Below, in pieces: positions 1 through 16,967 of a stretch of 64,000 nucleotides of DNA. This DNA is from Escherichia coli. GTDB taxonomy: Bacteria; Pseudomonadota; Gammaproteobacteria; Enterobacterales; Enterobacteriaceae. Numbering within the stretch: the first letter of the stretch is position 1; every line of letters begins with the position of its first letter. A model generated the notes under the pieces. It was not told where the DNA came from. It was given only the letters and a program-made list of their open reading frames with translations, and made no database searches. A program made the position numbers and the translations under genes. The stretch lies in the NCBI RefSeq assembly GCF_009931435.1, contig NZ_CP043414.1; one strand, 5' to 3'.

Positions 1-638
1 TCGCTAAGCTGGAATGACTGTTTTTCTTCGGTGTTGGTATTGCACAGGTTGTTGTTATCGCTAACAAAAAACCAGCACAGAATCCCCAACAAGATGTAAA
101 CCACACTATAGATGATAATGACCGTTTTCAGGCTGGCGCTGTCATCCGGTGCAAAGCGAGAAAAGACCCACATGGTAAACACCGCCAGCGACATTACACC
201 GACGCCGCGCAGCCCTTCCATCCAGCCCATAATTTTCCCTTGCTCGCTATGATCGCCAAGCAACGATGCGGCTTTAATCGACACCGACCACAGCATTAAA
301 ATCGTCGTTATCGCAAAGGCGACCTGAATACAGAGCATTACCCACAGCGGTGGATACGTTGCCATTAACAGACCCAGCAATCCGGTAATGATCATCGCGG
401 AAGTAATCATTTTGCGATGCGAAAATTTATCGGCAATAACGCCGCTGGGGGCATAAAGAATAATAGCCGCAATACCAAAGGTACTCATTATTAAACCTAT
501 CTCGGTATTGCTGAATCCCATAAATTTCGCCATGGGAATTTGATAAATATAACGTAAATAAGCCAGATCAAAACTAACGCCGCCACTAAAACTAATTATC
601 GCTAGGGTTATCCAACGGCGATATGAGTTGTGTTGCAT
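1..638 (-). CDS. yqcE: MFS-type transporter, N-terminal part only (gene continues past window start)
   Basis: Reverse-strand frame opens at ATG (complement of 636-638) and runs to position 1 without a stop; absent from the ORF track for that reason. N-terminus MQHNSYRRWITLAIISFSGG... is hydrophobic and transporter-like. Symbol assigned by synteny with ygcW, from memory. Confidence 0.55.
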   Translation of the reverse strand, partial: MQHNSYRRWITLAIISFSGGVSFDLAYLRYIYQIPMAKFMGFSNTEIGLIMSTFGIAAIILYAPSGVIADKFSHRKMITSAMIITGLLGLLMATYPPLWVMLCIQVAFAITTILMLWSVSIKAASLLGDHSEQGKIMGWMEGLRGVGVMSLAVFTMWVFSRFAPDDSASLKTVIIIYSVVYILLGILCWFFVSDNNNLCNTNTEEKQSFQLS

Positions 639-816: not shown

Positions 817-832
817 TGTGATTACGATCACA
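817..832. promoter_or_regulatory. Candidate CRP-type operator (TGTGA-N6-TCACA)
   Basis: Sequence tgtgattacgatcaca is a perfect inverted repeat matching both CRP half-sites, in the divergent intergenic region between the MFS gene and ygcW. Confidence 0.4.
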
Positions 833-956: not shown

Positions 957-1742
957 ATGTCAATCGAATCTCTCAATGCGTTCTCAATGGATCTTTTCTC
1001 CCTGAAAGGTAAAACCGCAATTGTTACCGGCGGGAATAGCGGTTTAGGCCAGGCATTTGCCATGGCGCTGGCAAAAGCAGGCGCAAATATCTTTATTCCA
1101 AGTTTCGTTAAAGATAATGGCGAAACAAAGGAAATGATTGAAAAACAGGGTGTTGAGGTGGACTTCATGCAGGTGGATATCACCGCAGAAGGCGCGCCGC
1201 AGAAGATAATTACCGCCTGTTGTGAACGTTTCGGCACCGTCGATATTCTGGTTAACAATGCCGGTATATGTAAGCTGAATAAGGTGCTGGATTTCGGTCG
1301 TGCCGACTGGGACCCGATGATTGACGTGAACCTGACCGCCGCATTCGAGTTAAGCTATGAAGCGGCAAAAATTATGATCCCGCAGAAAAGCGGTAAAATC
1401 ATTAATATCTGTTCATTATTCTCTTACTTAGGTGGTCAATGGTCACCTGCTTATTCTGCCACTAAACACGCCCTTGCCGGATTTACCAAAGCCTATTGCG
1501 ATGAATTAGGTCAATATAATATTCAGGTAAATGGTATTGCCCCAGGATATTACGCTACCGATATCACCCTGGCGACACGCAGTAATCCAGAAACCAATCA
1601 GCGCGTTCTTGATCATATTCCAGCAAACCGTTGGGGCGATACTCAGGATTTAATGGGCGCAGCCATATTTCTCGCAAGTCCGGCATCGAATTATGTCAAC
1701 GGGCATTTATTAGTGGTTGATGGCGGTTATTTAGTGCGCTAA
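957..1742 (+). CDS. ygcW: Short-chain dehydrogenase/reductase family oxidoreductase (261 aa)
   Basis: ORF-track frame 882..1742; start taken at ATG 957 with GGAG about 8 nt upstream. TGGNSGLG Rossmann motif and YSATK catalytic motif present. Confidence 0.85.
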   Translation: MSIESLNAFSMDLFSLKGKTAIVTGGNSGLGQAFAMALAKAGANIFIPSFVKDNGETKEMIEKQGVEVDFMQVDITAEGAPQKIITACCERFGTVDILVNNAGICKLNKVLDFGRADWDPMIDVNLTAAFELSYEAAKIMIPQKSGKIINICSLFSYLGGQWSPAYSATKHALAGFTKAYCDELGQYNIQVNGIAPGYYATDITLATRSNPETNQRVLDHIPANRWGDTQDLMGAAIFLASPASNYVNGHLLVVDGGYLVR

Positions 1743-1811
1743 TCCATAACGGTGGTTTCTGATTTCTTTTATTAATGACTATTCCATTTTTATTATCAGG
1801 AAGGAATTACT

Positions 1812-3266
1812 ATGTCTTTATCTCGCGCAGCGATTGTCGACCAGCTAAAGGAAATTGTTGGTGCAGATCGCGTAATTACCGATGAAACGGTATTGAAGAA
1901 AAACAGTATTGATCGTTTTCGTAAATTTCCGGATATTCATGGTATTTATACTTTGCCTATTCCGGCAGCGGTCGTAAAACTCGGTTCCACTGAGCAAGTG
2001 TCCCGTGTGCTGAATTTTATGAATGCACACAAAATTAACGGCGTACCACGTACCGGTGCTTCCGCTACCGAAGGCGGGCTGGAAACCGTTGTGGAAAACT
2101 CGGTGGTGCTTGATGGCTCTGCAATGAATCAAATCATTAATATTGATATAGAGAATATGCAGGCGACGGCGCAATGTGGCGTTCCGCTGGAAGTGCTGGA
2201 AAACGCGTTGCGTGAAAAAGGTTACACCACGGGGCACTCTCCGCAGTCAAAACCGTTGGCACAGATGGGGGGACTGGTGGCGACCCGTAGTATCGGGCAG
2301 TTCTCCACACTCTACGGCGCAATCGAGGATATGGTCGTTGGCCTGGAAGCAGTACTGGCTGATGGCACCGTGACACGCATTAAAAACGTGCCACGACGCG
2401 CGGCGGGTCCGGACATTCGTCACATCATCATCGGCAACGAAGGCGCATTGTGCTATATCACTGAAGTTACTGTGAAAATCTTTAAATTCACCCCGGAAAA
2501 CAACCTCTTCTACGGCTATATCCTGGAAGACATGAAAACCGGCTTCAACATCCTGCGTGAAATCATGGTGGAAGGATATCGTCCGTCGATCGCTCGTTTG
2601 TATGACGCTGAAGATGGCACCCAACACTTCACCCATTTTGCCGACGGAAAATGCGTGCTGATCTTTATGGCTGAAGGTAACCCTCGCATTGCGAAGGCGA
2701 CGGGCGAAGGGATTGCTGAAATCGTGGCACGTTACCCGCAATGCCAGCGCGTGGACAGCAAGCTGATCGAAACCTGGTTTAACAACCTGAACTGGGGACC
2801 GGATAAAGTGGCTGCCGAACGTGTGCAGATCCTCAAAACCGGCAACATGGGCTTTACCACCGAAGTCTCCGGCTGCTGGAGCTGCATCCACGAAATCTAC
2901 GAAAGTGTTATTAACCGTATTCGTACCGAGTTCCCACATGCCGACGACATCACTATGCTGGGCGGTCACTCTTCCCACAGCTATCAGAACGGCACCAACA
3001 TGTATTTTGTCTACGACTACAACGTTGTTGACTGTAAGCCGGAAGAGGAAATCGACAAATACCACAATCCGCTCAACAAAATCATCTGCGAAGAAACCAT
3101 TCGCCTCGGCGGTTCGATGGTACACCATCACGGTATCGGTAAACATCGTGTTCACTGGAGCAAACTGGAACACGGCAGCGCGTGGGCGTTGCTGGAAGGG
3201 CTGAAAAAGCAGTTCGATCCTAACGGCATTATGAATACGGGTACTATCTATCCGATTGAAAAATAA
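1812..3266 (+). CDS. ygcU: FAD-linked oxidase (PCMH-type FAD-binding domain, 484 aa)
   Basis: ORF track 1812..3266; full-length relative to the E. coli YgcU family as I recall it. Confidence 0.85.
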   Translation: MSLSRAAIVDQLKEIVGADRVITDETVLKKNSIDRFRKFPDIHGIYTLPIPAAVVKLGSTEQVSRVLNFMNAHKINGVPRTGASATEGGLETVVENSVVLDGSAMNQIINIDIENMQATAQCGVPLEVLENALREKGYTTGHSPQSKPLAQMGGLVATRSIGQFSTLYGAIEDMVVGLEAVLADGTVTRIKNVPRRAAGPDIRHIIIGNEGALCYITEVTVKIFKFTPENNLFYGYILEDMKTGFNILREIMVEGYRPSIARLYDAEDGTQHFTHFADGKCVLIFMAEGNPRIAKATGEGIAEIVARYPQCQRVDSKLIETWFNNLNWGPDKVAAERVQILKTGNMGFTTEVSGCWSCIHEIYESVINRIRTEFPHADDITMLGGHSSHSYQNGTNMYFVYDYNVVDCKPEEEIDKYHNPLNKIICEETIRLGGSMVHHHGIGKHRVHWSKLEHGSAWALLEGLKKQFDPNGIMNTGTIYPIEK

Positions 3267-3359
3267 TGTGTCAGGTAGCGTTTCGCGATGACGGGACGTT
3301 GCCTTTTCGGCTTCTCAACCGGGAAGCCGTTCTTATTACCGGACAATGAAGGGGTAAAG

Positions 3360-4697
3360 ATGAACACTTCACCGGTGCGAATGGATGATTTACCACTTAA
3401 CCGTTTTCACTGTCGAATTGCTGCGCTGACTTTCGGCGCACACCTGACCGACGGTTATGTTCTCGGCGTCATTGGTTACGCCATAATTCAGCTTACTCCA
3501 GCCATGCAACTGACGCCGTTTATGGCGGGAATGATCGGCGGCTCGGCGCTACTTGGCCTGTTTATCGGCAGCCTGGTTTTGGGCTGGATCTCCGACCATA
3601 TCGGGCGGCAAAAAATCTTCACCTTCAGCTTTATGCTGATTACACTCGCCTCGTTCCTGCAATTTTTTGCCACCACGCCAGAGCATCTTATTGGACTGCG
3701 CATTTTGATCGGCATTGGGCTGGGAGGCGATTACTCAGTAGGCCACACCTTGCTGGCTGAATTTTCTCCGCGCCGCCATCGCGGTATTTTGCTGGGCGCA
3801 TTCAGCGTGGTGTGGACCGTAGGCTATGTGCTGGCAAGTATTGCCGGACATCACTTTATTAGCGAAAGCCCCGAAGCCTGGCGATGGTTACTTGCATCGG
3901 CGGCATTTCCTGCCCTGTTGATTACGTTGTTACGTTGGGGAACGCCAGAATCGCCACGCTGGCTACTGCGCCAGGGGCGTTTTGCAGAAGCTCACGCTAT
4001 CGTGCATCGCTATTTTGGTCCCCATGTTTTACTGGGCGATGAAGTGGCAACGGCGACCCATAAACACATCAAAACCTTGTTCTCTTCGCGCTACTGGCGG
4101 CGCACGGCGTTTAACAGTGTCTTCTTTGTCTGCCTCGTAATCCCATGGTTTGTAATTTACACCTGGCTGCCAACTATCGCCCAGACTATTGGACTGGAAG
4201 ATGCGCTGACTGCCAGCCTGCTGCTTAACGCGTTATTAATTGTGGGTGCGCTGCTGGGATTATTTCTGACGCACCTGCTGGCACATCGCAAATTTTTACT
4301 TGGCAGTTTTTTGTTGCTGGCGGCAACGCTGGTAGTGATGGCCTGTTTGCCTTCTGGCTGTTCATTAACGCTGCTGCTTTTTGTTCTCTTCAGTACCACC
4401 ATTTCGGCAGTCAGTAATCTGGTGGGCATTTTGCCTGCGGAAAGTTTTCCTACTGACATTCGCTCGCTGGGCGTCGGTTTTGCCACCGCCATGAGTCGGT
4501 TGGGCGCGGCGGTAAGTACTGGCCTGCTGCCGTGGGTGCTGGCACAGTGGGGAATGCAAGTCACCTTATTGCTCCTGGCGGCAGTGTTGTTGGTTGGTTT
4601 TGTTGTGACCTGGCTATGGGCGCCAGAAACCAAAGCACTCCCGCTGGTGGCGGCGGGAAATGTAGGAGGTGTGAATGAACATTCTGTTAGCGTTTAA
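3360..4697 (+). CDS. ygcS: MFS transporter (445 aa)
   Basis: ORF-track frame 3288..4697; start taken at ATG 3360 (MNTSPVRMDDL...) behind AAGGGG. Multiple TM segments and GR(Q/K) MFS signatures. Confidence 0.8.
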   Translation: MNTSPVRMDDLPLNRFHCRIAALTFGAHLTDGYVLGVIGYAIIQLTPAMQLTPFMAGMIGGSALLGLFIGSLVLGWISDHIGRQKIFTFSFMLITLASFLQFFATTPEHLIGLRILIGIGLGGDYSVGHTLLAEFSPRRHRGILLGAFSVVWTVGYVLASIAGHHFISESPEAWRWLLASAAFPALLITLLRWGTPESPRWLLRQGRFAEAHAIVHRYFGPHVLLGDEVATATHKHIKTLFSSRYWRRTAFNSVFFVCLVIPWFVIYTWLPTIAQTIGLEDALTASLLLNALLIVGALLGLFLTHLLAHRKFLLGSFLLLAATLVVMACLPSGCSLTLLLFVLFSTTISAVSNLVGILPAESFPTDIRSLGVGFATAMSRLGAAVSTGLLPWVLAQWGMQVTLLLLAAVLLVGFVVTWLWAPETKALPLVAAGNVGGVNEHSVSV

Positions 4698-5454
4698 AGC
4701 CGAACCGGATGCCGGAATGCTGGCGGAAAAAGAGTGGCAGGCGGCGGCTCAGGGTAATAGCGGACCGGATGTTTCGCTGCTGCGAAGTTTACTCGGTGCT
4801 GATGAACAGGCCGCTGCCGCGCTTCTGTTAGCGCAGAGAAAAAACGGTACGCCGATGTCTTTAACCGCGTTGAGCATGGGGGATGAACGGGCGTTGCACT
4901 GGCTGCGCTATCTCATGGCTCTTGGGTTTGAGGAAGCTGTATTGCTGGAGACGGCGGCAGATCTGCGCTTTGCGCCGGAATTTGTCGCTCGCCATATTGC
5001 CGAATGGCAGCGCCAGAATCCGCTGGATCTGATCATTACTGGCTGCCAGAGCAGCGAAGGGCAGAACGGGCAAACGCCATTTTTGCTGGCGGAAATGCTG
5101 ACCTGGCCCTGTTTTACCCAGGTGGAGCGTTTTACTCTCGACGCACCGTTTATCTCGCTCGAACAGCGTACTGAACATGGATTACGCTGTTGTCGGGTTC
5201 GCTTGCCTGCGGTGATTGCCGTGCGCCAGTGTGGCGAGGTGGCCTTGCCAGTACCGGGAATGCGCCAGCGAATGGCTGCGGGGAAAGCTGAAATTATCCG
5301 CAAAACTGTTACTGCTGAATCGTCAGCGATGCAGTGCCGGCAACTGGAAAGGCCAGAGCAACGACGCGGTGCAACGCTTCTTGATGGGCAAACGGTAGCA
5401 GAAAAAGCGCAAAAGCTATGGCAGGACTATTTACGCCAAAGGATGCAGCCATGA
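4675..5454 (+). CDS. ygcR: Electron-transfer flavoprotein beta-subunit-like protein (FixA family, 259 aa)
   Basis: ORF track 4675..5454; its stop overlaps the ygcQ start (ATGA). Confidence 0.8.
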   Translation: MNILLAFKAEPDAGMLAEKEWQAAAQGNSGPDVSLLRSLLGADEQAAAALLLAQRKNGTPMSLTALSMGDERALHWLRYLMALGFEEAVLLETAADLRFAPEFVARHIAEWQRQNPLDLIITGCQSSEGQNGQTPFLLAEMLTWPCFTQVERFTLDAPFISLEQRTEHGLRCCRVRLPAVIAVRQCGEVALPVPGMRQRMAAGKAEIIRKTVTAESSAMQCRQLERPEQRRGATLLDGQTVAEKAQKLWQDYLRQRMQP

Positions 5455-6311
5455 ATATCGCCATTGTGACAATAAATCAGGAACATGCCGCAATAGCGGG
5501 CTGGCTGGCGGAGCAGGATTTCAGCGGCAGCACATTAACGCACTGGCAAATCGAGCCGCAGCCGATGGTCGCGGAACAGGTGCTGGATGCGCTGGTAGAA
5601 CAGTGGCAGCGAACGCCTGCGGACGTTGTTCTCTTTCCGCCGGGAACGTTTGGCGATGAACTGGCTACCCGCCTGTCCTGGCGTTTACATGGTGCCAGTA
5701 TATGCCAGGTGACTTCATTAAATATTCCAACCGGAAGCGTACGCAAATCCCAGTGGGGAAATGCGCTAACGGCGACGCTGCAAACAGAAAAACGCCCGCT
5801 ATGCCTTTCCCTTGCCCGCCAGGCGGGAGCAGTGAAAAATGCCACGTTGCCCTCTGGTATGCAGCAACTGAACATTGTCCCCGGCGCGCTTCCCGACTGG
5901 CTGGTTAGCACAGAGGATCTGAAAAATGTTACCCACGACCCATTAGCTGAGGCCAGACGGGTGCTGGTGGTGGGGCAGGGCGGAGAGGCAGATAACCAGG
6001 AAATCGCTATGCTGGCAGAAAAGCTGGGAGCCGAAGCGGGCTACAGTCGGGCGCGAGTAATGAACGGTGGCGTTGATGCCGAAAAAGTGATTGGTATTTC
6101 CGGACATCTGCTGGCACCTGAGGTGTGTATTGTTGTTGGCGCTTCCGGCGCAGCAGCGTTAATGGCGGGCGTCCGCAATAGCAAGTTTGTGGTGGCGATT
6201 AATCATGACGCCAGCGCGGCGGTATTTTCACAGGCAGATGTTGGCGTGGTAGATGACTGGAAAGCGGTGCTGGAGGCACTGGTGACAACCATTCACGCAG
6301 ATTGCCAATAA
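5451..6311 (+). CDS. ygcQ: Electron-transfer flavoprotein alpha-subunit-like protein (FixB family, 286 aa)
   Basis: ORF-track frame 5418..6311; start taken at ATG 5451 (MNIAIVT...) behind AAGGA, overlapping the ygcR stop. Confidence 0.8.
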   Translation: MNIAIVTINQEHAAIAGWLAEQDFSGSTLTHWQIEPQPMVAEQVLDALVEQWQRTPADVVLFPPGTFGDELATRLSWRLHGASICQVTSLNIPTGSVRKSQWGNALTATLQTEKRPLCLSLARQAGAVKNATLPSGMQQLNIVPGALPDWLVSTEDLKNVTHDPLAEARRVLVVGQGGEADNQEIAMLAEKLGAEAGYSRARVMNGGVDAEKVIGISGHLLAPEVCIVVGASGAAALMAGVRNSKFVVAINHDASAAVFSQADVGVVDDWKAVLEALVTTIHADCQ

Positions 6312-6317
6312 CGTGCT

Positions 6318-6423
6318 GCCGGATGATCCTGTCTACGGTTCTGGGCTGGGGACTGTAGGCCTGATAAGACGCGTCAAGCGTCGTATCAGGCGCTGAATGC
6401 CGGATTTGGCATGTGGCCTACAA
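6318..6423. repeat. REP/BIME cluster (repetitive extragenic palindromes)
   Basis: Contains tgtaggcctgataagacgcgtcaagcgtcgtatcaggcg and a second gccggat...ggcctaca unit, typical E. coli REP sequences, between convergent ygcQ and ygcP. Confidence 0.7.
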
Positions 6424-6456: not shown

Positions 6457-7032
6457 TCAAAGCAATTTTTTCGCTAACGTCCAGACCCCGGTATTCGTGG
6501 TGGAAAGCGCCACGACACCGGCGTTAATCGCATTACGCGCATCTTCTTCATCGCACACCAGCCCGCCAGCAATCAGCGGCTGGTGGATTTTCTCCGTTAC
6601 CCAGCCCAGCACTTTAGGCATACAGCCTGGCAGAATTTCAATACAATCAGGATTCGATTGCGCAACCTGCTTATCAATGTTGTGAAAAGAAATCGAGTCG
6701 ACAATAAACAAGCGATGAATACAGAAAAAGCCTTCCGCTCTCGCCGCTTTTAGCATTGACGCTTTGGTACTGATAATGCCGTCCGCCTCGGTCACCAGTT
6801 TCAGAAACTGAATTACTACTTCTTTATTTGATGCGCCTTCCAGCAAATCGACATGAATAAAGGCATATTTCCCGGCACTTTTAATCTTTTTGACGATATG
6901 ACTGATGGTGCAGATATTGCCGTATAACACGGAAATAAACTGGCATTCAGAATCGATTGCCAACTGCAGGCTGGCATTATCTTTAACGGCAGCAATCACC
7001 GGATTCTGGCGGAGCAGGTGTAAGAGGGGCAT
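6457..7032 (-). CDS. ygcP: GlpP-like glycerol-3-phosphate-responsive antiterminator family protein (191 aa)
   Basis: ORF track 6457..7032. Confidence 0.8.
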   Translation of the reverse strand: MPLLHLLRQNPVIAAVKDNASLQLAIDSECQFISVLYGNICTISHIVKKIKSAGKYAFIHVDLLEGASNKEVVIQFLKLVTEADGIISTKASMLKAARAEGFFCIHRLFIVDSISFHNIDKQVAQSNPDCIEILPGCMPKVLGWVTEKIHQPLIAGGLVCDEEDARNAINAGVVALSTTNTGVWTLAKKLL

Positions 7033-7309: not shown

Positions 7310-8571
7310 CGAATACTCCTGACAACATCGCCCGCCAGATGCCACAGGCCATGACGACGTAAATGACGCCAGAGCAACTGACGCAGCGGCGGAACAGGTT
7401 TATCACCCTGATCCCATAAATCACGGGAAATATCCTGCATTAACACAGGCCACTTACGGTACCATCCAGGGCGTTGCAAAAGCGCCGGAACATGCTGATA
7501 GCGCTGTAGAACATCCCACAGCAGGCTGCGCTCTACGTTGTAATGATAAAGCGGAAACAGATTTTGCGGCTCGCGGTGCTGGCAGGCGCTTATCAGCGTT
7601 TGTGCCGCCGCCTGTGCGCCAGCCAGCGCCATATCCATGCCGCGCACGGAAATTCCGGTATTGACGCAACTGCGCAACGTATCGCCCACCAGCAGCCAGC
7701 CGTTACCGGCGTATTGCACCGGCATACTGTGCAAGCCACCTTCTGGCACCAGATGCGCACCATACTCCAGTGATTCCGTGTTTTTGATAAGCGGGCGCAC
7801 TGCCGGATGCGTTTTAAAGCGAGCCAGCAGCTCGCTTGCCGGAACACGACTTTGCGTAAGTGAAGAGAGCGGGCAAACAATCCCTAACGAGAGCGTTTGT
7901 TGATTAGTATAAAGAAATGCGCCGCCGGGTAAGTCATCACAGATTCCGCCGCTGAACAGCAACGCTGCGCCTTCGTTATTCTCCAGATGAAAACGTTCTT
8001 CAATAGCGGATGTTTCCAGTGAAAGAACTTCTTTGATCCCCAACGCCATCGCTTCGCCAGCAGGACGAGTCACTAACCCGTGACGCTCAGCCAGGACGCT
8101 GTTGGCACCTTCTGCCAGCGCCACATAACGGGCGCGGAGAATATCGTCACCGCAAATGACACCACACACCCTGCCGTTTTCTTCATACAGCGCATCTACC
8201 GTCGCACCAGGGATGCATTCGACACCTTCTTTTTCGGCTTCGGCAACCAGCCACGGATCGAACCGTGCACGTAATACGCTCCAGGATTCACCGCCGGGCT
8301 GTAAGCTGGAAAACGTCGTTGCGCCATCCGGCGTTAGCAGAGAAAGACTTTCGTGAGTGATGCGTCGTTCAAGAGGCGCGGTCAGGTGAAACTGAGGGAG
8401 GAGTTCCGCGAGCGCATGGGTGTATAAACGCCCGCCGGAAAGGTTTTTACTGCCGGGAATTTCAGCGCGTTCCAGTAACAGAACGGATAAACCTGCCCGC
8501 GCGCAGCGTAAAGCACAAGCGGTGCCTGCTATACCCGCACCAATAATAATAATGTCGCAGTCGTCTTCCAT
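7300..8571 (-). CDS. ygcN: FAD-dependent oxidoreductase (FixC family, 423 aa)
   Basis: ORF-track frame 7300..8601 (GTG); start taken at ATG 8571 (MEDDCDIIIIGAGIAG... dinucleotide-binding motif). Confidence 0.8.
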   Translation of the reverse strand: MEDDCDIIIIGAGIAGTACALRCARAGLSVLLLERAEIPGSKNLSGGRLYTHALAELLPQFHLTAPLERRITHESLSLLTPDGATTFSSLQPGGESWSVLRARFDPWLVAEAEKEGVECIPGATVDALYEENGRVCGVICGDDILRARYVALAEGANSVLAERHGLVTRPAGEAMALGIKEVLSLETSAIEERFHLENNEGAALLFSGGICDDLPGGAFLYTNQQTLSLGIVCPLSSLTQSRVPASELLARFKTHPAVRPLIKNTESLEYGAHLVPEGGLHSMPVQYAGNGWLLVGDTLRSCVNTGISVRGMDMALAGAQAAAQTLISACQHREPQNLFPLYHYNVERSLLWDVLQRYQHVPALLQRPGWYRKWPVLMQDISRDLWDQGDKPVPPLRQLLWRHLRRHGLWHLAGDVVRSIRCL

Positions 8572-9329: not shown

Positions 9330-11135
9330 ATGACGACACAGGTCCCACCTTCCGCGTTGCTTCCGTTGAACCCGGAGCAACTGGCACGCCTTCAGGCGGC
9401 CACGACCGATTTAACTCCCACCCAGCTTGCCTGGGTTTCTGGCTATTTCTGGGGCGTGCTCAACCAACAGCCTGCTGCGCTTACAGCGACGCCAGCGCCC
9501 GCCCCCGCCGCAGAAATGCCGGGTATAACTATTATCTCCGCTTCGCAAACCGGCAATGCGCGCCGGGTTGCTGAAACATTACGCGATGATTTATTAGCGG
9601 CAAAACTGAACGTTAAGCTGGTGAACGCGGGCGACTATAAATTCAAACAAATCGCCAGCGAAAAACTGCTCATCGTGGTGACGTCAACGCAAGGTGAAGG
9701 GGAACCGCCGGAGGAGGCCGTCGCGCTGCATAAGTTCCTGTTCTCCAAAAAAGCGCCGAAGCTGGAAAACACCGCGTTTGCTGTGTTTAGTCTCGGCGAT
9801 AGCTCTTATGAATTTTTCTGCCAGTCCGGGAAAGATTTTGACAGCAAGCTGGCGGAACTGGGCGGTGAACGCCTGCTCGACCGTGTCGATGCCGACGTTG
9901 AATACCAGGCTGCTGCCATCGAGTGGCGCGCCCGCGTGGTTGATGTTCTGAAGTCCCGTACGCCTGTCGCGGCACCTTCGCAATCCGTCGCTACTGGCGC
10001 GGTAAATGAAATCCACACCAGCCCGTACAGCAAAGACGCGCCGCTGGTGGCGAGCCTCTCTGTTAACCAGAAAATTACCGGGCGTAACTCTGAAAAAGAC
10101 GTTCGCCATATCGAAATTGACTTAGGTGACTCGGGCCTGCGTTACCAGCCGGGTGACGCGCTGGGCGTCTGGTATCAGAACGATCCGGCACTGGTGAAAG
10201 AACTTGTCGAACTGCTGTGGCTGAAAGGCGATGAACCTGTCACCGTCGAGGGCAAAACGTTACCTCTGAACGAGGCCCTACAGTGGCACTTCGAACTGAC
10301 CGTCAACACCGCCAACATCGTTGAGAACTACGCCACGCTTACCCGCAGTGAAACGCTGCTGCCGCTGGTGGGCGATAAAGCGAAGTTACAGCATTACGCC
10401 GCGACGACGCCGATTGTCGATATGGTGCGTTTCTCTCCGGCACAGCTTGACGCTGAAGCCCTCATTAACTTGCTGCGCCCGCTGACGCCGCGCCTGTATT
10501 CCATCGCCTCCTCGCAGGCGGAAGTCGAGAACGAAGTACACGTCACCGTTGGTGTCGTTCGTTATGACATTGAAGGCCGCGCCCGTGCCGGTGGTGCCTC
10601 TAGTTTCCTCGCGGATCGTGTGGAAGAAGAGGGCGAAGTCCGCGTCTTTATCGAACATAACGACAACTTCCGTCTGCCAGCCAACCCGGAAACGCCGGTG
10701 ATTATGATTGGTCCAGGCACCGGCATCGCGCCGTTCCGCGCCTTTATGCAGCAACGTGCTGCTGACGAAGCGCCGGGTAAAAACTGGCTGTTCTTTGGCA
10801 ACCCACACTTTACGGAAGATTTCCTCTATCAGGTGGAGTGGCAGCGCTACGTCAAAGAGGGCGTGCTGACACGTATCGATCTTGCCTGGTCGCGCGATCA
10901 AAAAGAAAAAATTTACGTACAAGACAAACTGCGCGAACAGGGCGCAGAGCTGTGGCGCTGGATCAATGACGGAGCCCACATTTATGTCTGCGGCGACGCT
11001 AATCGCATGGCGAAAGACGTTGAACAGGCACTTCTGGAAGTGATTGCCGAATTTGGTGGCATGGACACCGAAGCGGCGGATGAATTTTTAAGTGAGCTGC
11101 GCGTAGAGCGCCGTTATCAGCGAGATGTCTACTAA
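9330..11135 (+). CDS. cysJ: Sulfite reductase [NADPH] flavoprotein alpha subunit
   Basis: ORF track 9330..11135; N-terminus [24 protein letters not shown]... is CysJ, with flavodoxin and FAD/NADPH domains. Confidence 0.95.
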
Positions 11136-12847
11136 TGAACGAAAAACATCCAGGGCCTTTAGTGGTCGAAGGAAAACTGACAGACGCCGAGCGCATGAAG
11201 CTTGAGAGCAACTACCTGCGCGGGACCATTGCGGAAGATTTAAACGACGGTCTGACCGGCGGCTTTAAGGGCGACAACTTCCTGCTGATCCGTTTCCACG
11301 GTATGTATCAGCAGGATGACCGCGATATCCGCGCCGAACGTGCTGAACAGAAGCTGGAACCGCGTCATGCGATGCTGCTGCGCTGCCGTCTGCCGGGTGG
11401 GGTGATCACCACTAAACAGTGGCAGGCAATTGATAAATTCGCCGGTGAAAACACCATTTATGGCAGCATTCGCCTGACCAACCGCCAGACGTTCCAGTTC
11501 CACGGCATTCTGAAAAAGAACGTCAAACCGGTGCACCAGATGCTGCACTCGGTCGGTCTTGATGCGCTGGCGACCGCCAACGACATGAACCGTAATGTAC
11601 TCTGCACCTCGAACCCATTTGAATCTCAGTTGCACGCGGAAGCGTATGAGTGGGCGAAGAAAATCTCTGAACATCTGCTGCCGCGAACCCGCGCCTATGC
11701 GGAGATCTGGCTCGATCAGGAGAAAGTCGCCACTACTGACGAAGAACCGATCCTCGGTCAGACCTATCTGCCGCGTAAATTCAAAACCACGGTAGTGATC
11801 CCGCCGCAGAACGATATCGATCTGCACGCCAACGACATGAACTTTGTGGCGATCGCGGAAAACGGCAAGCTGGTGGGCTTCAACCTGCTGGTGGGCGGTG
11901 GGCTTTCTATCGAACACGGCAACAAGAAAACCTACGCCCGCACGGCGAGTGAGTTTGGTTATCTGCCGCTGGAGCATACGCTGGCGGTGGCGGAAGCCGT
12001 CGTGACAACTCAGCGCGACTGGGGTAACCGAACCGATCGTAAAAATGCCAAAACCAAATACACGCTGGAGCGCGTGGGGGTCGAGACGTTTAAAGCAGAA
12101 GTGGAACGTCGCGCGGGGATCAAATTTGAGCCGATCCGTCCATATGAATTTACCGGGCGCGGCGATCGTATCGGCTGGGTAAAAGGGATCGACGACAAAT
12201 GGCACCTGACGCTGTTTATCGAAAATGGCCGAATTCTTGATTATCCGGGGCGTCCGCTGAAAACCGGCCTGCTGGAGATCGCGAAGATCCACAAAGGTGA
12301 TTTCCGCATTACGGCGAACCAGAATCTGATCATCGCTGGTGTACCGGAAAGCGAGAAAGCGAAGATTGAGAAGATCGCCAAAGAGAGCGGATTGATGAAT
12401 GCCGTCACGCCGCAGCGCGAAAACTCAATGGCCTGCGTGTCATTCCCGACTTGCCCGTTGGCGATGGCGGAAGCGGAGCGTTTCCTGCCGTCGTTTATCG
12501 ATAACATCGATAATTTAATGGCGAAACATGGTGTCAGCGATGAGCACATCGTGATGCGTGTAACAGGCTGCCCGAACGGTTGTGGTCGCGCGATGCTGGC
12601 GGAAGTTGGCCTGGTGGGTAAAGCGCCGGGTCGCTACAACCTGCATCTTGGTGGCAACCGCATTGGGACACGTATCCCACGGATGCATAAAGAAAACATC
12701 ACCGAGCCGGAAATCCTGGCGACGCTTGATGAACTGATAGGGCGCTGGGCGAAAGAACGTGAAGCGGGTGAAGGCTTCGGCGACTTTACGGTGCGTGCGG
12801 GCATCATTCGCCCGGTGCTCGATCCGGCGCGTGATTTGTGGGATTAA
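11135..12847 (+). CDS. cysI: Sulfite reductase [NADPH] hemoprotein beta subunit
   Basis: ORF track 11135..12847; start overlaps the cysJ stop (TAATG). Confidence 0.95.
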
Positions 12848-14309: not shown

Positions 14310-16967
14310 GTGACTTTCTTTGATTTCTGGGGAAAAACCCGACGTGGCGAGAAAGAGGGTGGCGACGATTATCACCTTCTTTGCTGGCATTCGCTGGATG
14401 TAGCCGCGATAGGCTATTTAATGGTCAAAAACAACTGTTTCGGGCTGGCTGACTATTTTCGTCAATTAGGTTTCGCTGACACGGATCAGGCAGCACAATT
14501 TTTCGCCTGGTTGTTGTGCTGGCACGATACTGGAAAATTTGCCCGCTCATTTCAGCAACTTTACCTGCACCCACAACTCAAGGTTCCGGAAGGCGCAAGA
14601 AAGAATTACGAAAAGATCTCTCATTCAACGCTGGGTTACTGGTTGTGGCATCATTATTTAATTGAATGTGAAGAGTTGCTTCCTTCATCTTCACTCTCTT
14701 TGCGCAAACTTAAACGAGTAATAGATATGTGGATGCCCGTGACGACCGGGCATCATGGTCGGCCTCCTGACCGTATCGATGAACTGGACAACTTTCTGCC
14801 TGAAGACAAAGCTGCCGCACGGGATTTTCTCCTTGAAATCAAGGTACTGTTTCCGCTCATCGAGATCCCTACATTCTGGGATGATGACGAGGGCGTTGAA
14901 CTTATAAAACATTTTTCCTGGTATATCTCTGCAACCGTCGTACTCGCAGACTGGACGGGATCGTCAACGCGGTTTTTTCCACGCGTTGCACAGGCAATGG
15001 ATATTAAAGATTACTGGCAGAAGGCTTTAGTTCAGGCTCAAAACGCATTAACCGTCTTTCCCCCAAAAGCAGAAAGCGCGCCTTTCACTGGAATTAATAC
15101 GCTGTTTCCTTTTATTGAGAACCCAACACCGTTACAGCAAAAGGTGTTGGATCTGGATATCAGCCAGCCAGGACCACAGTTGTTTATTCTGGAAGATGTG
15201 ACTGGCGCAGGTAAAACAGAAGCGGCGCTTATCCTGGCGCACAGGTTGATGTCTGCGGGGAAAGCACAGGGTTTGTTTTTTGGCCTGCCAACAATGGCAA
15301 CGGCCAATGCCATGTACGATAGGCTGGTAAAAACCTGGCTTGCTTTCTATTCGCCACAATCCCGCCCCAGCCTGGTGCTGGCACACAGCGCTCGTTCGCT
15401 AATGGATCGCTTTAACGCATCGCTGTGGTCTGGTGATTTTGTGGGGTCAGAAGAACCGGATGAACAAGCGTTCAGTCAGGGATGTGCGGCCTGGTTTGCT
15501 GACAGTAACAAGAAGGCGTTGCTGGCTGAAATTGGCGTCGGCACGCTGGATCAGGCGATGATGGCGGTGATGCCGTTCAAACATAATAATCTGCGGCTTC
15601 TGGGGCTGAGTAACAAAATCCTGCTAGCCGATGAGATCCACGCCTGTGACGCTTATATGTCGTGCATTCTTGAAGGGCTGATCGAGCGGCAGGCGCGTGG
15701 CGGAAACAGCGTTATTTTGCTTTCTGCTACGTTGTCTCAACAGCAGCGTGACAAACTCGTCGCCGCCTTTGCGCGTGGTGCAGAGGGCCAGCAAGAAGCT
15801 CCGTTGCTGGAAAAAGATGATTATCCCTGGCTGACGCATGTCACGAAATCCGATGTGCATTCGCACCGGGTAGCGACGCGCAAAGACGTTGAGCGCAGCG
15901 TGAGTGTGGGTTGGCTTCATAGCGAACAAGAGTGTATTGCGCGTATCGAATCGGCGGTAAGTCAGGGGAAATGCATCGCCTGGATTCGGAATTCTGTCGA
16001 TGACGCCATCCAGGTTCATCGTCAGCTGCTTGCCCGCGGCGTCATTCCTGCTTCCAGCCTTTCACTTTTTCATAGCCGCTTTGCTTTCAGCGATCGCCAG
16101 CGAATTGAAACGGAGACGCTGGCACGCTTTGGTAAAGAAGACTGTTCACAGCGTGCCGGAAAAGTCCTCATTTGTACTCAGGTCCTGGAGCAGAGCGTCG
16201 ACTGCGACCTGGACGAAATGATTTCCGACCTTGCCCCTGTTGATTTACTGATCCAGCGAGCAGGGCGATTACAGCGACATATCCGCGATATTAATGGTCA
16301 GTTAAAGCGTGACGGTAAAGACGAGCGTCACCCTCCTGTATTGCTGATTCTGGCCCCCGTCTGGAACGACTCTCCGGGTGAAGAATGGTTTGGCTGTGCC
16401 ATGCGTAACAGTGCATTTGTCTATCCCGATCATGGGCGAATCTGGTTGACGCAGCGTGTGCTGCGTGAACAAGGCGCGATTCAGATGCCACACTCAGCCC
16501 GGCTTCTGATTGAATCAGTCTACGGTGAGGACGTGGTAATGCCGGAAGGGTTTGCCCGCAGCGAGCAGGAGCAAGTGGGCAAATACTACTGCGATCGTTC
16601 AATGGCTAATAAGTTTGTGCTGAACTTCAGGCCCGGCTATGCCGCCAATATCAACGATTACCTCCCGGAAAAACTGTCGACACGTCTGGCTGAAGAGTCT
16701 GTTTCCCTGTGGCTGGCTAGCTGTATTGGCGGTGTGGTGAAGCCTTATGCCACCGGTGCACACGCATGGGAAATGAGCGTTGTCAGAGTGCGCCAAAGCT
16801 GGTGGAAAAAACATCGGGATAAGTTTTCTTTACTGGAAGGGGATGCGTTCAGGCAGTGGTGCGTTGAACAGCGGCAAGATCCGGAGATGGCAAACGTGAT
16901 TTTGGTCACCGATGACGAAAGTTGTGGATATTCGGCTACGGAGGGATTGATTGGCAAGGTTGGTTGA
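14310..16967 (+). CDS. cas3: Type I-E CRISPR-associated nuclease/helicase Cas3 (885 aa)
   Basis: ORF track 14310..16967 (GTG start). HD motifs (LLCWHSLDVAA, WHDTGKF), Walker A (GAGKTEAAL) and DExH (DEIH) present. N-terminus resembles Salmonella-type Cas3 rather than K-12 YgcB (from memory). Confidence 0.9.
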   Translation: MTFFDFWGKTRRGEKEGGDDYHLLCWHSLDVAAIGYLMVKNNCFGLADYFRQLGFADTDQAAQFFAWLLCWHDTGKFARSFQQLYLHPQLKVPEGARKNYEKISHSTLGYWLWHHYLIECEELLPSSSLSLRKLKRVIDMWMPVTTGHHGRPPDRIDELDNFLPEDKAAARDFLLEIKVLFPLIEIPTFWDDDEGVELIKHFSWYISATVVLADWTGSSTRFFPRVAQAMDIKDYWQKALVQAQNALTVFPPKAESAPFTGINTLFPFIENPTPLQQKVLDLDISQPGPQLFILEDVTGAGKTEAALILAHRLMSAGKAQGLFFGLPTMATANAMYDRLVKTWLAFYSPQSRPSLVLAHSARSLMDRFNASLWSGDFVGSEEPDEQAFSQGCAAWFADSNKKALLAEIGVGTLDQAMMAVMPFKHNNLRLLGLSNKILLADEIHACDAYMSCILEGLIERQARGGNSVILLSATLSQQQRDKLVAAFARGAEGQQEAPLLEKDDYPWLTHVTKSDVHSHRVATRKDVERSVSVGWLHSEQECIARIESAVSQGKCIAWIRNSVDDAIQVHRQLLARGVIPASSLSLFHSRFAFSDRQRIETETLARFGKEDCSQRAGKVLICTQVLEQSVDCDLDEMISDLAPVDLLIQRAGRLQRHIRDINGQLKRDGKDERHPPVLLILAPVWNDSPGEEWFGCAMRNSAFVYPDHGRIWLTQRVLREQGAIQMPHSARLLIESVYGEDVVMPEGFARSEQEQVGKYYCDRSMANKFVLNFRPGYAANINDYLPEKLSTRLAEESVSLWLASCIGGVVKPYATGAHAWEMSVVRVRQSWWKKHRDKFSLLEGDAFRQWCVEQRQDPEMANVILVTDDESCGYSATEGLIGKVG

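Follow-up and report, generated by a model that had tools for sequence, protein, structure and literature searches.

Genes and regulatory features of the yqcE–ygcW region

The window, by which we mean the whole 64,000-nucleotide (64 kb) stretch of DNA that was analysed, is a piece of Escherichia chromosome in reversed orientation relative to K-12. At its start lies the 5′ part of yqcE (positions 1–638, minus strand, ATG at 638), which encodes an MFS transporter according to both a Pfam MFS_1 match and the E. coli annotation; the gene exits the window. Divergent from it are ygcW-ygcU-ygcS-ygcR-ygcQ (957–6311, plus strand), assigned from their open reading frames, Pfam matches and the K-12 annotation. 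ygcW, with its ATG at 957 on the plus strand, encodes a short-chain dehydrogenase (SDR), ygcU an FAD-linked oxidase and ygcS another MFS transporter, while the products of ygcR and ygcQ are like ETF beta and ETF alpha, respectively. The genes ygcP-ygcO-ygcN are convergent to this group. On the basis of Pfam, homology and co-occurrence, the product of ygcP (6457–7032, minus strand), a member of the GlpP family (PF04309), is a candidate antiterminator for the leaders of both ygcW and yqcE. REP/BIME-like palindromes (gcctgataagacgcg...cgtcgtatcaggc) are found at 6310–6420, between the convergent ygcQ and ygcP.

The intergenic spacer between the divergent yqcE and ygcW is 318 bp long, and the same 318-bp spacer is found in 5066 of 5426 complete E. 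coli genomes. The initial annotation had described a perfect CRP-type palindrome here, and reading the sequence confirms it: positions 817–832 are tgtgattacgatcaca, or TGTGA-TTACGA-TCACA, an exact match to TGTGA-N6-TCACA. Its placement between genes for an MFS transporter (yqcE) and for YgcW likewise agrees with the open reading frames, Pfam and the annotation. This palindrome, centred on 824.5, is referred to as site A and is identified by its sequence, a weight matrix, its conservation and published binding. At a distance of 57 bp is a candidate CRP-like site, site B (TGTGAGAGTAGTCACG, 760–775, centre 767.5), recognised by motif, matrix and conservation. Neither site is assigned to a strand.

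Intrinsic terminators in the ygcW and yqcE leaders

The leaders of ygcW and yqcE each contain an element that we interpret as an attenuator, located at 864–932 on the plus strand and 663–729 on the minus strand, respectively. The first was detected by a terminator scan, fold z-score, a covariance model (R1), covariation and Term-seq, the second by fold z-score, R1 and Term-seq. In the ygcW leader the terminator scan gives a stem of 19 pairs, formed by 884–902 with 907–925, and a U tract at 924–932 (U9). The terminator of the yqcE leader has its stem at 710–671 and its U tract at 670–663 (U8), on the minus strand. The fold z-scores are −5.95 for the ygcW leader and −4.04 for that of yqcE.

Term-seq on K-12 in LB has placed 3′ ends in both leaders, neither of which is Rho-dependent (PMC7815308, supplementary file 3). 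The ygcW end is at 2900311 on the minus strand of K-12 (12312 of locus L001, 919 in the window), 38 nt before the ATG, with 40,640 reads and an intrinsic terminator score of 15.8. That of yqcE is at 2900556 on the plus strand of K-12 (12557 of L001, 674 in the window), 36 nt before the ATG, with 1,557 reads and a score of 11.4. Both ends were classed as ‘orphan’, without a regulatory element being noted (PMC7815308). They fall 13 nt (ygcW) and 11 nt (yqcE) before the end of the U tract, at the base of the G+C-rich upper stems on their 3′ side. We attribute this offset to 3′ trimming or early release, and it counts as a loose end against reading the leaders as attenuators.

With intrinsic terminators in both leaders, CRP is unlikely to be the whole story; for the expression of ygcW and yqcE it is probably necessary, but not sufficient. 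As cis-acting 5′ leaders with mutually exclusive structures, the elements resemble the leader and riboswitch families of Rfam. They differ from them in matching none at the gathering threshold: when 550–1050 was scanned against Rfam 15 at a permissive E-value no family reached its gathering score, the best match scoring 23 bits against a threshold of 100.

A covarying hairpin overlaps each terminator

A smaller helix, the putative antiterminator, can form in each leader. In that of ygcW, AGUUACC (868–874) pairs with GGUAACU (890–896) around the loop AGAGAUAAUGAGAAA (875–889), and in that of yqcE, AUUACU (724–719) pairs with AGUAAU (704–699) around the loop AGAGACCUGAGAAA (718–705). Because the 3′ arm of the small helix is also the 5′ arm of the terminator, the two structures are mutually exclusive. 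The consensus is a hairpin AGUUACY/RGUAACU with a loop AGAGA..GAGAAA, within a conserved leader of about 65 nt.

The loop of the ygcW leader also contains an ATG (882–884), at which the longest ygcW open reading frame begins (882–1742, 286 aa). The conserved start is at 957 (261 aa) and is preceded by a GGAG Shine-Dalgarno sequence, so that gene callers could over-extend the N-terminus of YgcW through the leader terminator. A leader peptide starting at AUG 882, in frame with ygcW, was considered and rejected; the AUG is missing from the yqcE and Firmicutes copies and there is no Shine-Dalgarno sequence.

The comparative set comprised 80 loci encoding YgcW relatives, and a pattern search of the loci recovered 100 copies of the element, 93 of them distinct. 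In the alignment, 94.8% of the cells of the small helix are paired. At pair 6–36, 66 rows have G-C, 27 have A-U and none is unpaired; at pair 11–31, U-A occurs in 61 and C-G in 24. The covariation of pair 6–36 belongs to the small helix specifically, since the terminator leaves its 3′ partner mostly unpaired. The A-U variants of the pair are seen in enterobacterial yqcE leaders and in several Firmicutes copies, a distribution that implies at least two or three independent changes. When, as a control, the partner was slid by 1–3 columns pairing fell to 15–53%, and none of 500 shuffles reached the observed covariation. RNAalifold also finds the small helix if the alignment is truncated.

At −6.7 and −1.4 kcal/mol the small helices are weak compared with the terminators (−34 and −22 kcal/mol), which suggests that termination is the default and that a factor is needed to prevent it. 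A weak hairpin lying over a strong terminator is what would be expected for a protein-stabilised switch.

The leader element co-occurs with YgcP

YgcP gives a full-length match to PF04309 (G3P_antiterm, ‘glycerol-3-phosphate responsive antiterminator’; E 2e-62) and is related to the solved GlpP-like proteins PDB 3KTS and 1VKF. In a search for YgcP homologues, the best 120 matches listed were all of the YgcP subfamily. The 64 kb window contains just two strong matches to R1, the covariance model of the leader element, in the leaders of ygcW (80.4 bits) and yqcE (74.2 bits), and the K-12 locus has two copies.

Co-occurrence was assessed in 51 more distant loci, where only full-length matches of at least 44 bits were counted as copies. 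The element was present in all 28 loci with a YgcP homologue, versus one of the 23 without (Fisher's exact p = 1.5e-13, for loci that are not phylogenetically independent), though these 23 still carry ygcW, ygcU and ygcE. The sole locus with the element and no local YgcP is that of Serratia microhaemolytica, where YgcP is encoded on another contig. The element and YgcP are found together from Enterobacterales to Clostridia, and Firmicutes loci have two to three copies of the element, before ygcW, before ygcU and on the divergent side. In a Buttiauxella MAG (locus L049, 7910–7974) ygcW stands alone, with neither ygcP nor the cluster, and its leader element is degenerate (31.6 bits), possibly a decaying remnant.

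On this sequence evidence it seems rather probable that both leaders are RNA targets of YgcP, and that in E. coli and other Enterobacterales the ygc cluster would form an antitermination regulon of the GlpP type. The leader hairpins might instead have nothing to do with YgcP, and be constitutive terminators of sRNAs made from the CRP promoters, a riboswitch for a ligand or the target of some other factor. A stable short RNA does exist, as the 40,640 Term-seq reads at the ygcW leader 3′ end in LB indicate, and there is no Rfam family for the element. We nonetheless think it unlikely that YgcP is uninvolved, as the elements lie directly between the promoter and the start codon of cluster operons in two phyla, recur two to three times within a Firmicutes locus (ygcW, ygcU and the divergent side) and are missing where YgcP is missing, even with ygcW, ygcU and ygcE in place. 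The variable loop, of 13–15 nt, is too small for a typical aptamer, and a weak hairpin overlapping a strong terminator fits protein-dependent antitermination.

Searching the literature on ygcP, ygcW and the other ygc genes, we found nothing on antitermination or on the function of the pathway. With no papers found on the function of ygcP and no Rfam family, the leader attenuator appears to be undescribed so far; it is probably a new case of GlpP-type antitermination.

Two probable back-to-back CRP promoters

The CRP weight matrix was built from 106 sites in a published ChIP-seq table, with site A excluded. Site A scores 18.7 bits, making it the top 16-mer of the window and placing it above 95% of the ChIP sites. 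Site B has one mismatch to the consensus and scores 12.5 bits, a value close to the ChIP-site median that ranks third in the window. The second best CRP-like 16-mer, CGTGATTTTGGTCACC at 16895–16910 (13.3 bits), lies in the 3′ end of cas3, the start of cse1 in the type I-E CRISPR-Cas operon following about 118 bp later. A further one, CGTGATGCGTGTAACA at 12550–12565 inside cysI, is the same 16-mer as that of the ‘(cysI)/cysH’ peak in the CRP ChIP-seq data from ETEC, an intragenic CRP site.

When the whole spacer from 19 genera was aligned (alignment A1), conserved blocks stood out from the free sequence between them, namely both sites, TGnTAAAA beyond site A, CATGYTATTT beyond site B, and the two leaders, which are almost invariant. 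The block downstream of site A is conserved as T.TG.TAAAA, while CATGYTATTT corresponds to TGnTATTT on the minus strand. From this conservation and from the geometry described below we predict extended −10 elements for ygcW at 851–859 (TGcTAAAAA, plus strand) and for yqcE at 733–741 (TGtTATTTC, minus strand).

For each leader element the best-scoring CRP-like 16-mer was taken from the 16–63 nt upstream. In all 84 Enterobacterales elements it reached at least 12.5 bits with its centre 41.5–44.5 nt upstream of the element's first base, and in 78 of the 84 the centre was at 42.5 or 43.5. TGnTA starts 15–17 nt before the element, again in 84 of 84, and the distance from the CRP centre to the TG is constant at 26.5. 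With this constant geometry and a start placed, as is usual, 7 nt from the −10 hexamer, transcription is predicted to begin at about 866 for ygcW and about 726 for yqcE, with sites A and B each at −41.5 of their own start, the class II arrangement. Site A would most likely be the class II activator site, centred on about −41.5, for the ygcW-ygcU-ygcS-ygcR-ygcQ transcript.

At class II CRP promoters of E. coli, for example galP1, CRP sits near −41.5 and the −35 element is weak or absent, often with an extended −10. The arrangement described here is alike in its consensus 16-mer of high affinity, TGn extended −10, lack of a recognisable −35 and predicted position at −41.5. It is unlike them in that two modules stand back to back, 57 bp apart, with a leader terminator right after each. 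The supplements of Cappable-seq and SMRT-Cappable-seq have no entry for a ygcW or yqcE start. For the spacer, the authors of a Genomic SELEX study proposed the hexamers TTGACA-16-TGTGAT and TTCTCA-18-GATAAT (PMC3946193), and the second pair was also recovered in our sequence scan. These promoters were not adopted, since they overlap the CRP site or are antisense in the ygcW leader and are not independently conserved.

In Firmicutes loci, TTGACA-17-TATAAT promoters lie 6–9 nt before the same element, which places the start of the RNA at the element. None of 16 Firmicutes elements is preceded by a CRP-like site, suggesting that the CRP module is an enterobacterial addition.

We infer from these alignments that the region contains two back-to-back CRP modules, site A serving ygcW and the predicted site B serving yqcE. 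Site B is conserved in Enterobacteriaceae, including part of its spacer (GARTWRT), and its equivalent in other genera is a perfect TGTGA-N6-TCACA. In Serratia-like genera the spacing from A to B ranges from 36 to 246 bp; site B moves with the divergent gene, and the distance from either site to its leader is unchanged. To the predicted start of the opposite gene each site measures about 98.5 bp (A to yqcE, B to ygcW), which does not fall on the helical phase at which class I sites usually lie and makes cross-activation unlikely. Together, the out-of-phase distances and the variable spacing argue for two independent CRP modules rather than one shared site.

One CRP target can activate divergent promoters, and a single dimer at 817–832 might do so here, site B being irrelevant or not a CRP site. 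Such an arrangement would agree with the ETEC ChIP-seq table, which gives one motif only for the ygcW/yqcE peak (PMC4287617), and with the one bound region in Table 1 of the Footprint-seq study (PMC12871828). Moreover, published activation by Crp is for yqcE-ygcE, which appears under ‘Crp activation’ in the NCM3722 list of ‘novel and validated’ operons of the Crp regulon, candidates having been chosen from expression trends that included crp-null data and their promoters validated by Crp EMSA (PMC8085971). Both the activation and the EMSA concern yqcE-ygcE and not ygcW, and sites A and B are not separable in that study (PMC8085971). Against a shared dimer stand the out-of-phase 98.5 bp from site A to the predicted yqcE start, the fixed position of site B at 42.5 before the yqcE leader element, and the constant site-to-leader distance in Serratia-like genera even with A and B anywhere from 36 to 246 bp apart, and we regard it as improbable.

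It is similarly doubtful that site B is the operator of another, pathway-specific DNA-binding regulator and looks like a CRP site by coincidence. The partial conservation of its spacer (GARTWRT), unlike that of site A, is unusual for CRP sites and would suit such a regulator, as would a score that is merely the median for CRP sites. No gene for a DNA-binding regulator is conserved in the cluster, however, the distances of site B to TGnTA and to the leader are exactly those of site A, and the equivalent site in other genera is a perfect palindrome.

CRP binding at site A

The perfect motif TGTGAN6TCACA has a single match in the 64 kb window, which is site A, where dinucleotide shuffles gave a mean of 0.12 perfect matches per 64 kb and 11 of 100 shuffles had at least one. 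Allowing up to one mismatch there are four matches, against 1.9 expected. By motif count alone site A is therefore only mildly unusual. Across 19 Enterobacteriaceae genera its half-sites (TGTGA, TCAC) are invariant and the 6-bp spacer is free, and a CRP-like site lies about 140–150 bp before the ygcW ATG in 43 of 45 Enterobacterales loci (L002–L048; the exceptions are L031 and L044). This conservation of position and half-sites is a signature of selection, not of chance.

In ETEC H10407, CRP ChIP-seq assigned TGTGATTACGATCACA to ygcW/yqcE among 111 high-confidence targets (PMC4287617), and Footprint-seq with K-12 DNA found acTGTGAttacgaTCACAtta at 2900412 and estimated its Kd at 1.7 nM (PMC12871828). 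The latter study calls the site ‘novel’, by which it means only that no previously described or predicted CRP site, with RegulonDB as reference set, lies within 500 bp (PMC12871828). As early as 2007, PhyloScan had ygcW/yqcE among its top CRP predictions (PMC1794230), and Genomic SELEX located the RpoD holoenzyme and H-NS in the yqcE–ygcW spacer (PMC3946193). That 817–832 is a chance match, as 11% of shuffled windows contain, or is bound by another protein of the Crp/Fnr family is barely credible, given the conservation of position across genera and the published binding of CRP in vivo and in vitro, which already refutes it.

The initial annotation had proposed the palindrome as a candidate for catabolite control, to be checked by gel shift, in crp backgrounds and against ChIP data. 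These experiments have largely been done in the literature, with positive outcome, and the proposal is supported, mostly by the ChIP-seq, Footprint-seq, EMSA and crp-null data published for identical E. coli sequence. The evidence supports site A as a genuine CRP site that was already published, and the CRP interpretation is not new. For the genome studied here, binding of cAMP-CRP at site A would follow from the identity of the K-12 and ETEC sequences reported in the literature. The site itself adds nothing new beyond showing that the orthologous site is intact in a non-K-12 Escherichia genome.

Relation to known antitermination systems

In B. subtilis, GlpP together with glycerol-3-phosphate antiterminates at the leader terminators of glpD, glpFK and glpTQ, and the glp promoters have −35 and −10 elements followed by the GlpP site and then an inherent terminator (PMC9604022, PMC10573289). 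We compared canonical glpP-glpF-glpK-glpD loci from S. aureus and Cytobacillus. Their glpF and glpD leaders (7900–7985 and 10485–10585 of locus L082; 7594–7677 and 10083–10160 of L083) begin with AAGUUAAUA, followed after 7–10 nt by AGAGA-N2-4-GAGA abutting the terminator. The AAGUUAAUA box with the AGAGA..GAGA core may be the recognition motif of canonical GlpP. By eye, the boxes A(A)GUUA and AGAGA..GAGA are common to the ygc and glp leaders. R1 scores the glp leaders at only 11–19 bits (E 0.04–1.7), which makes the ygc element no more than a diverged, compact relative.

The ygc cluster is like the B. subtilis glp regulon in containing a PF04309 gene, and in having promoter-proximal intrinsic terminators in several operons of one pathway. 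It would be alike, too, in combining catabolite control, which at glpFK is exerted by CcpA, with inducer-specific antitermination. It differs in its genes (ygc, not glp) and presumably its ligand, and its catabolite control is by CRP at the promoter. The ygc boxes, unlike those of the glp leaders, lie next to each other, in a covarying hairpin made with the terminator arm. Furthermore, GlpP is a known antiterminator, YgcP a candidate one. Within 200 nt of the Firmicutes elements there is no cre (CcpA) consensus, so the parallel with catabolite control at glpFK cannot be extended to them.

A second comparison is with the bgl operon of E. coli, where a CRP-dependent promoter is combined with antitermination by BglG at leader terminators, via the RAT hairpin; BglG is a PRD/CAT-domain protein unrelated to PF04309. 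The two systems, in the same organism, would share a two-key logic and a protein-stabilised hairpin over the 5′ arm of a terminator. They are unlike in their proteins, as BglG is not of PF04309, and in that the RAT sequence is unrelated to the ygc hairpin.

A model for expression of the ygc genes

Taking the promoter and leader evidence together, we hold with good confidence that a class II site A for ygcW, a site B for yqcE and leader terminators relieved by YgcP would together explain this region. We infer the start sites, the action of site A on ygcW, CRP at site B, YgcP as the RNA-binding factor and its ligand. cAMP-CRP at site A would recruit RNA polymerase to the ygcW promoter, and CRP at the predicted site B would probably play the same role at the yqcE-ygcE promoter. 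Either transcript would open at once with its leader element. Unaided, the leader RNA would fold into the terminator and transcription would halt ahead of the gene. It would seem likely that YgcP loaded with its inducer binds and stabilises the small hairpin, allowing RNA polymerase to read through. As with GlpK and G3P, the inducer would probably be the phosphorylated product that the FGGY kinase YgcE forms from an imported substrate. Expression would then require low glucose, sensed through CRP, plus the specific substrate, sensed through YgcP.

Such a mechanism would explain why a very strong CRP site precedes genes that are hardly expressed in the laboratory: transcripts would start and then stop in the leader, and leader 3′ ends are indeed abundant in LB. 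The CRP site is ordinary; it is the leader attenuators, with their connection to YgcP, that deserve attention. The orphan regulator YgcP would gain a concrete target, and the leaders would serve as a ready-made reporter switch with which to identify the inducer, and through it the substrate, of a widely conserved and uncharacterised cluster of oxidoreductases, kinase and ETF proteins. If the model is correct, the hairpin–terminator motif would define the recognition element of a whole PF04309 subfamily and open a way to the substrate of the ygcW-ygcU-ygcE pathway.
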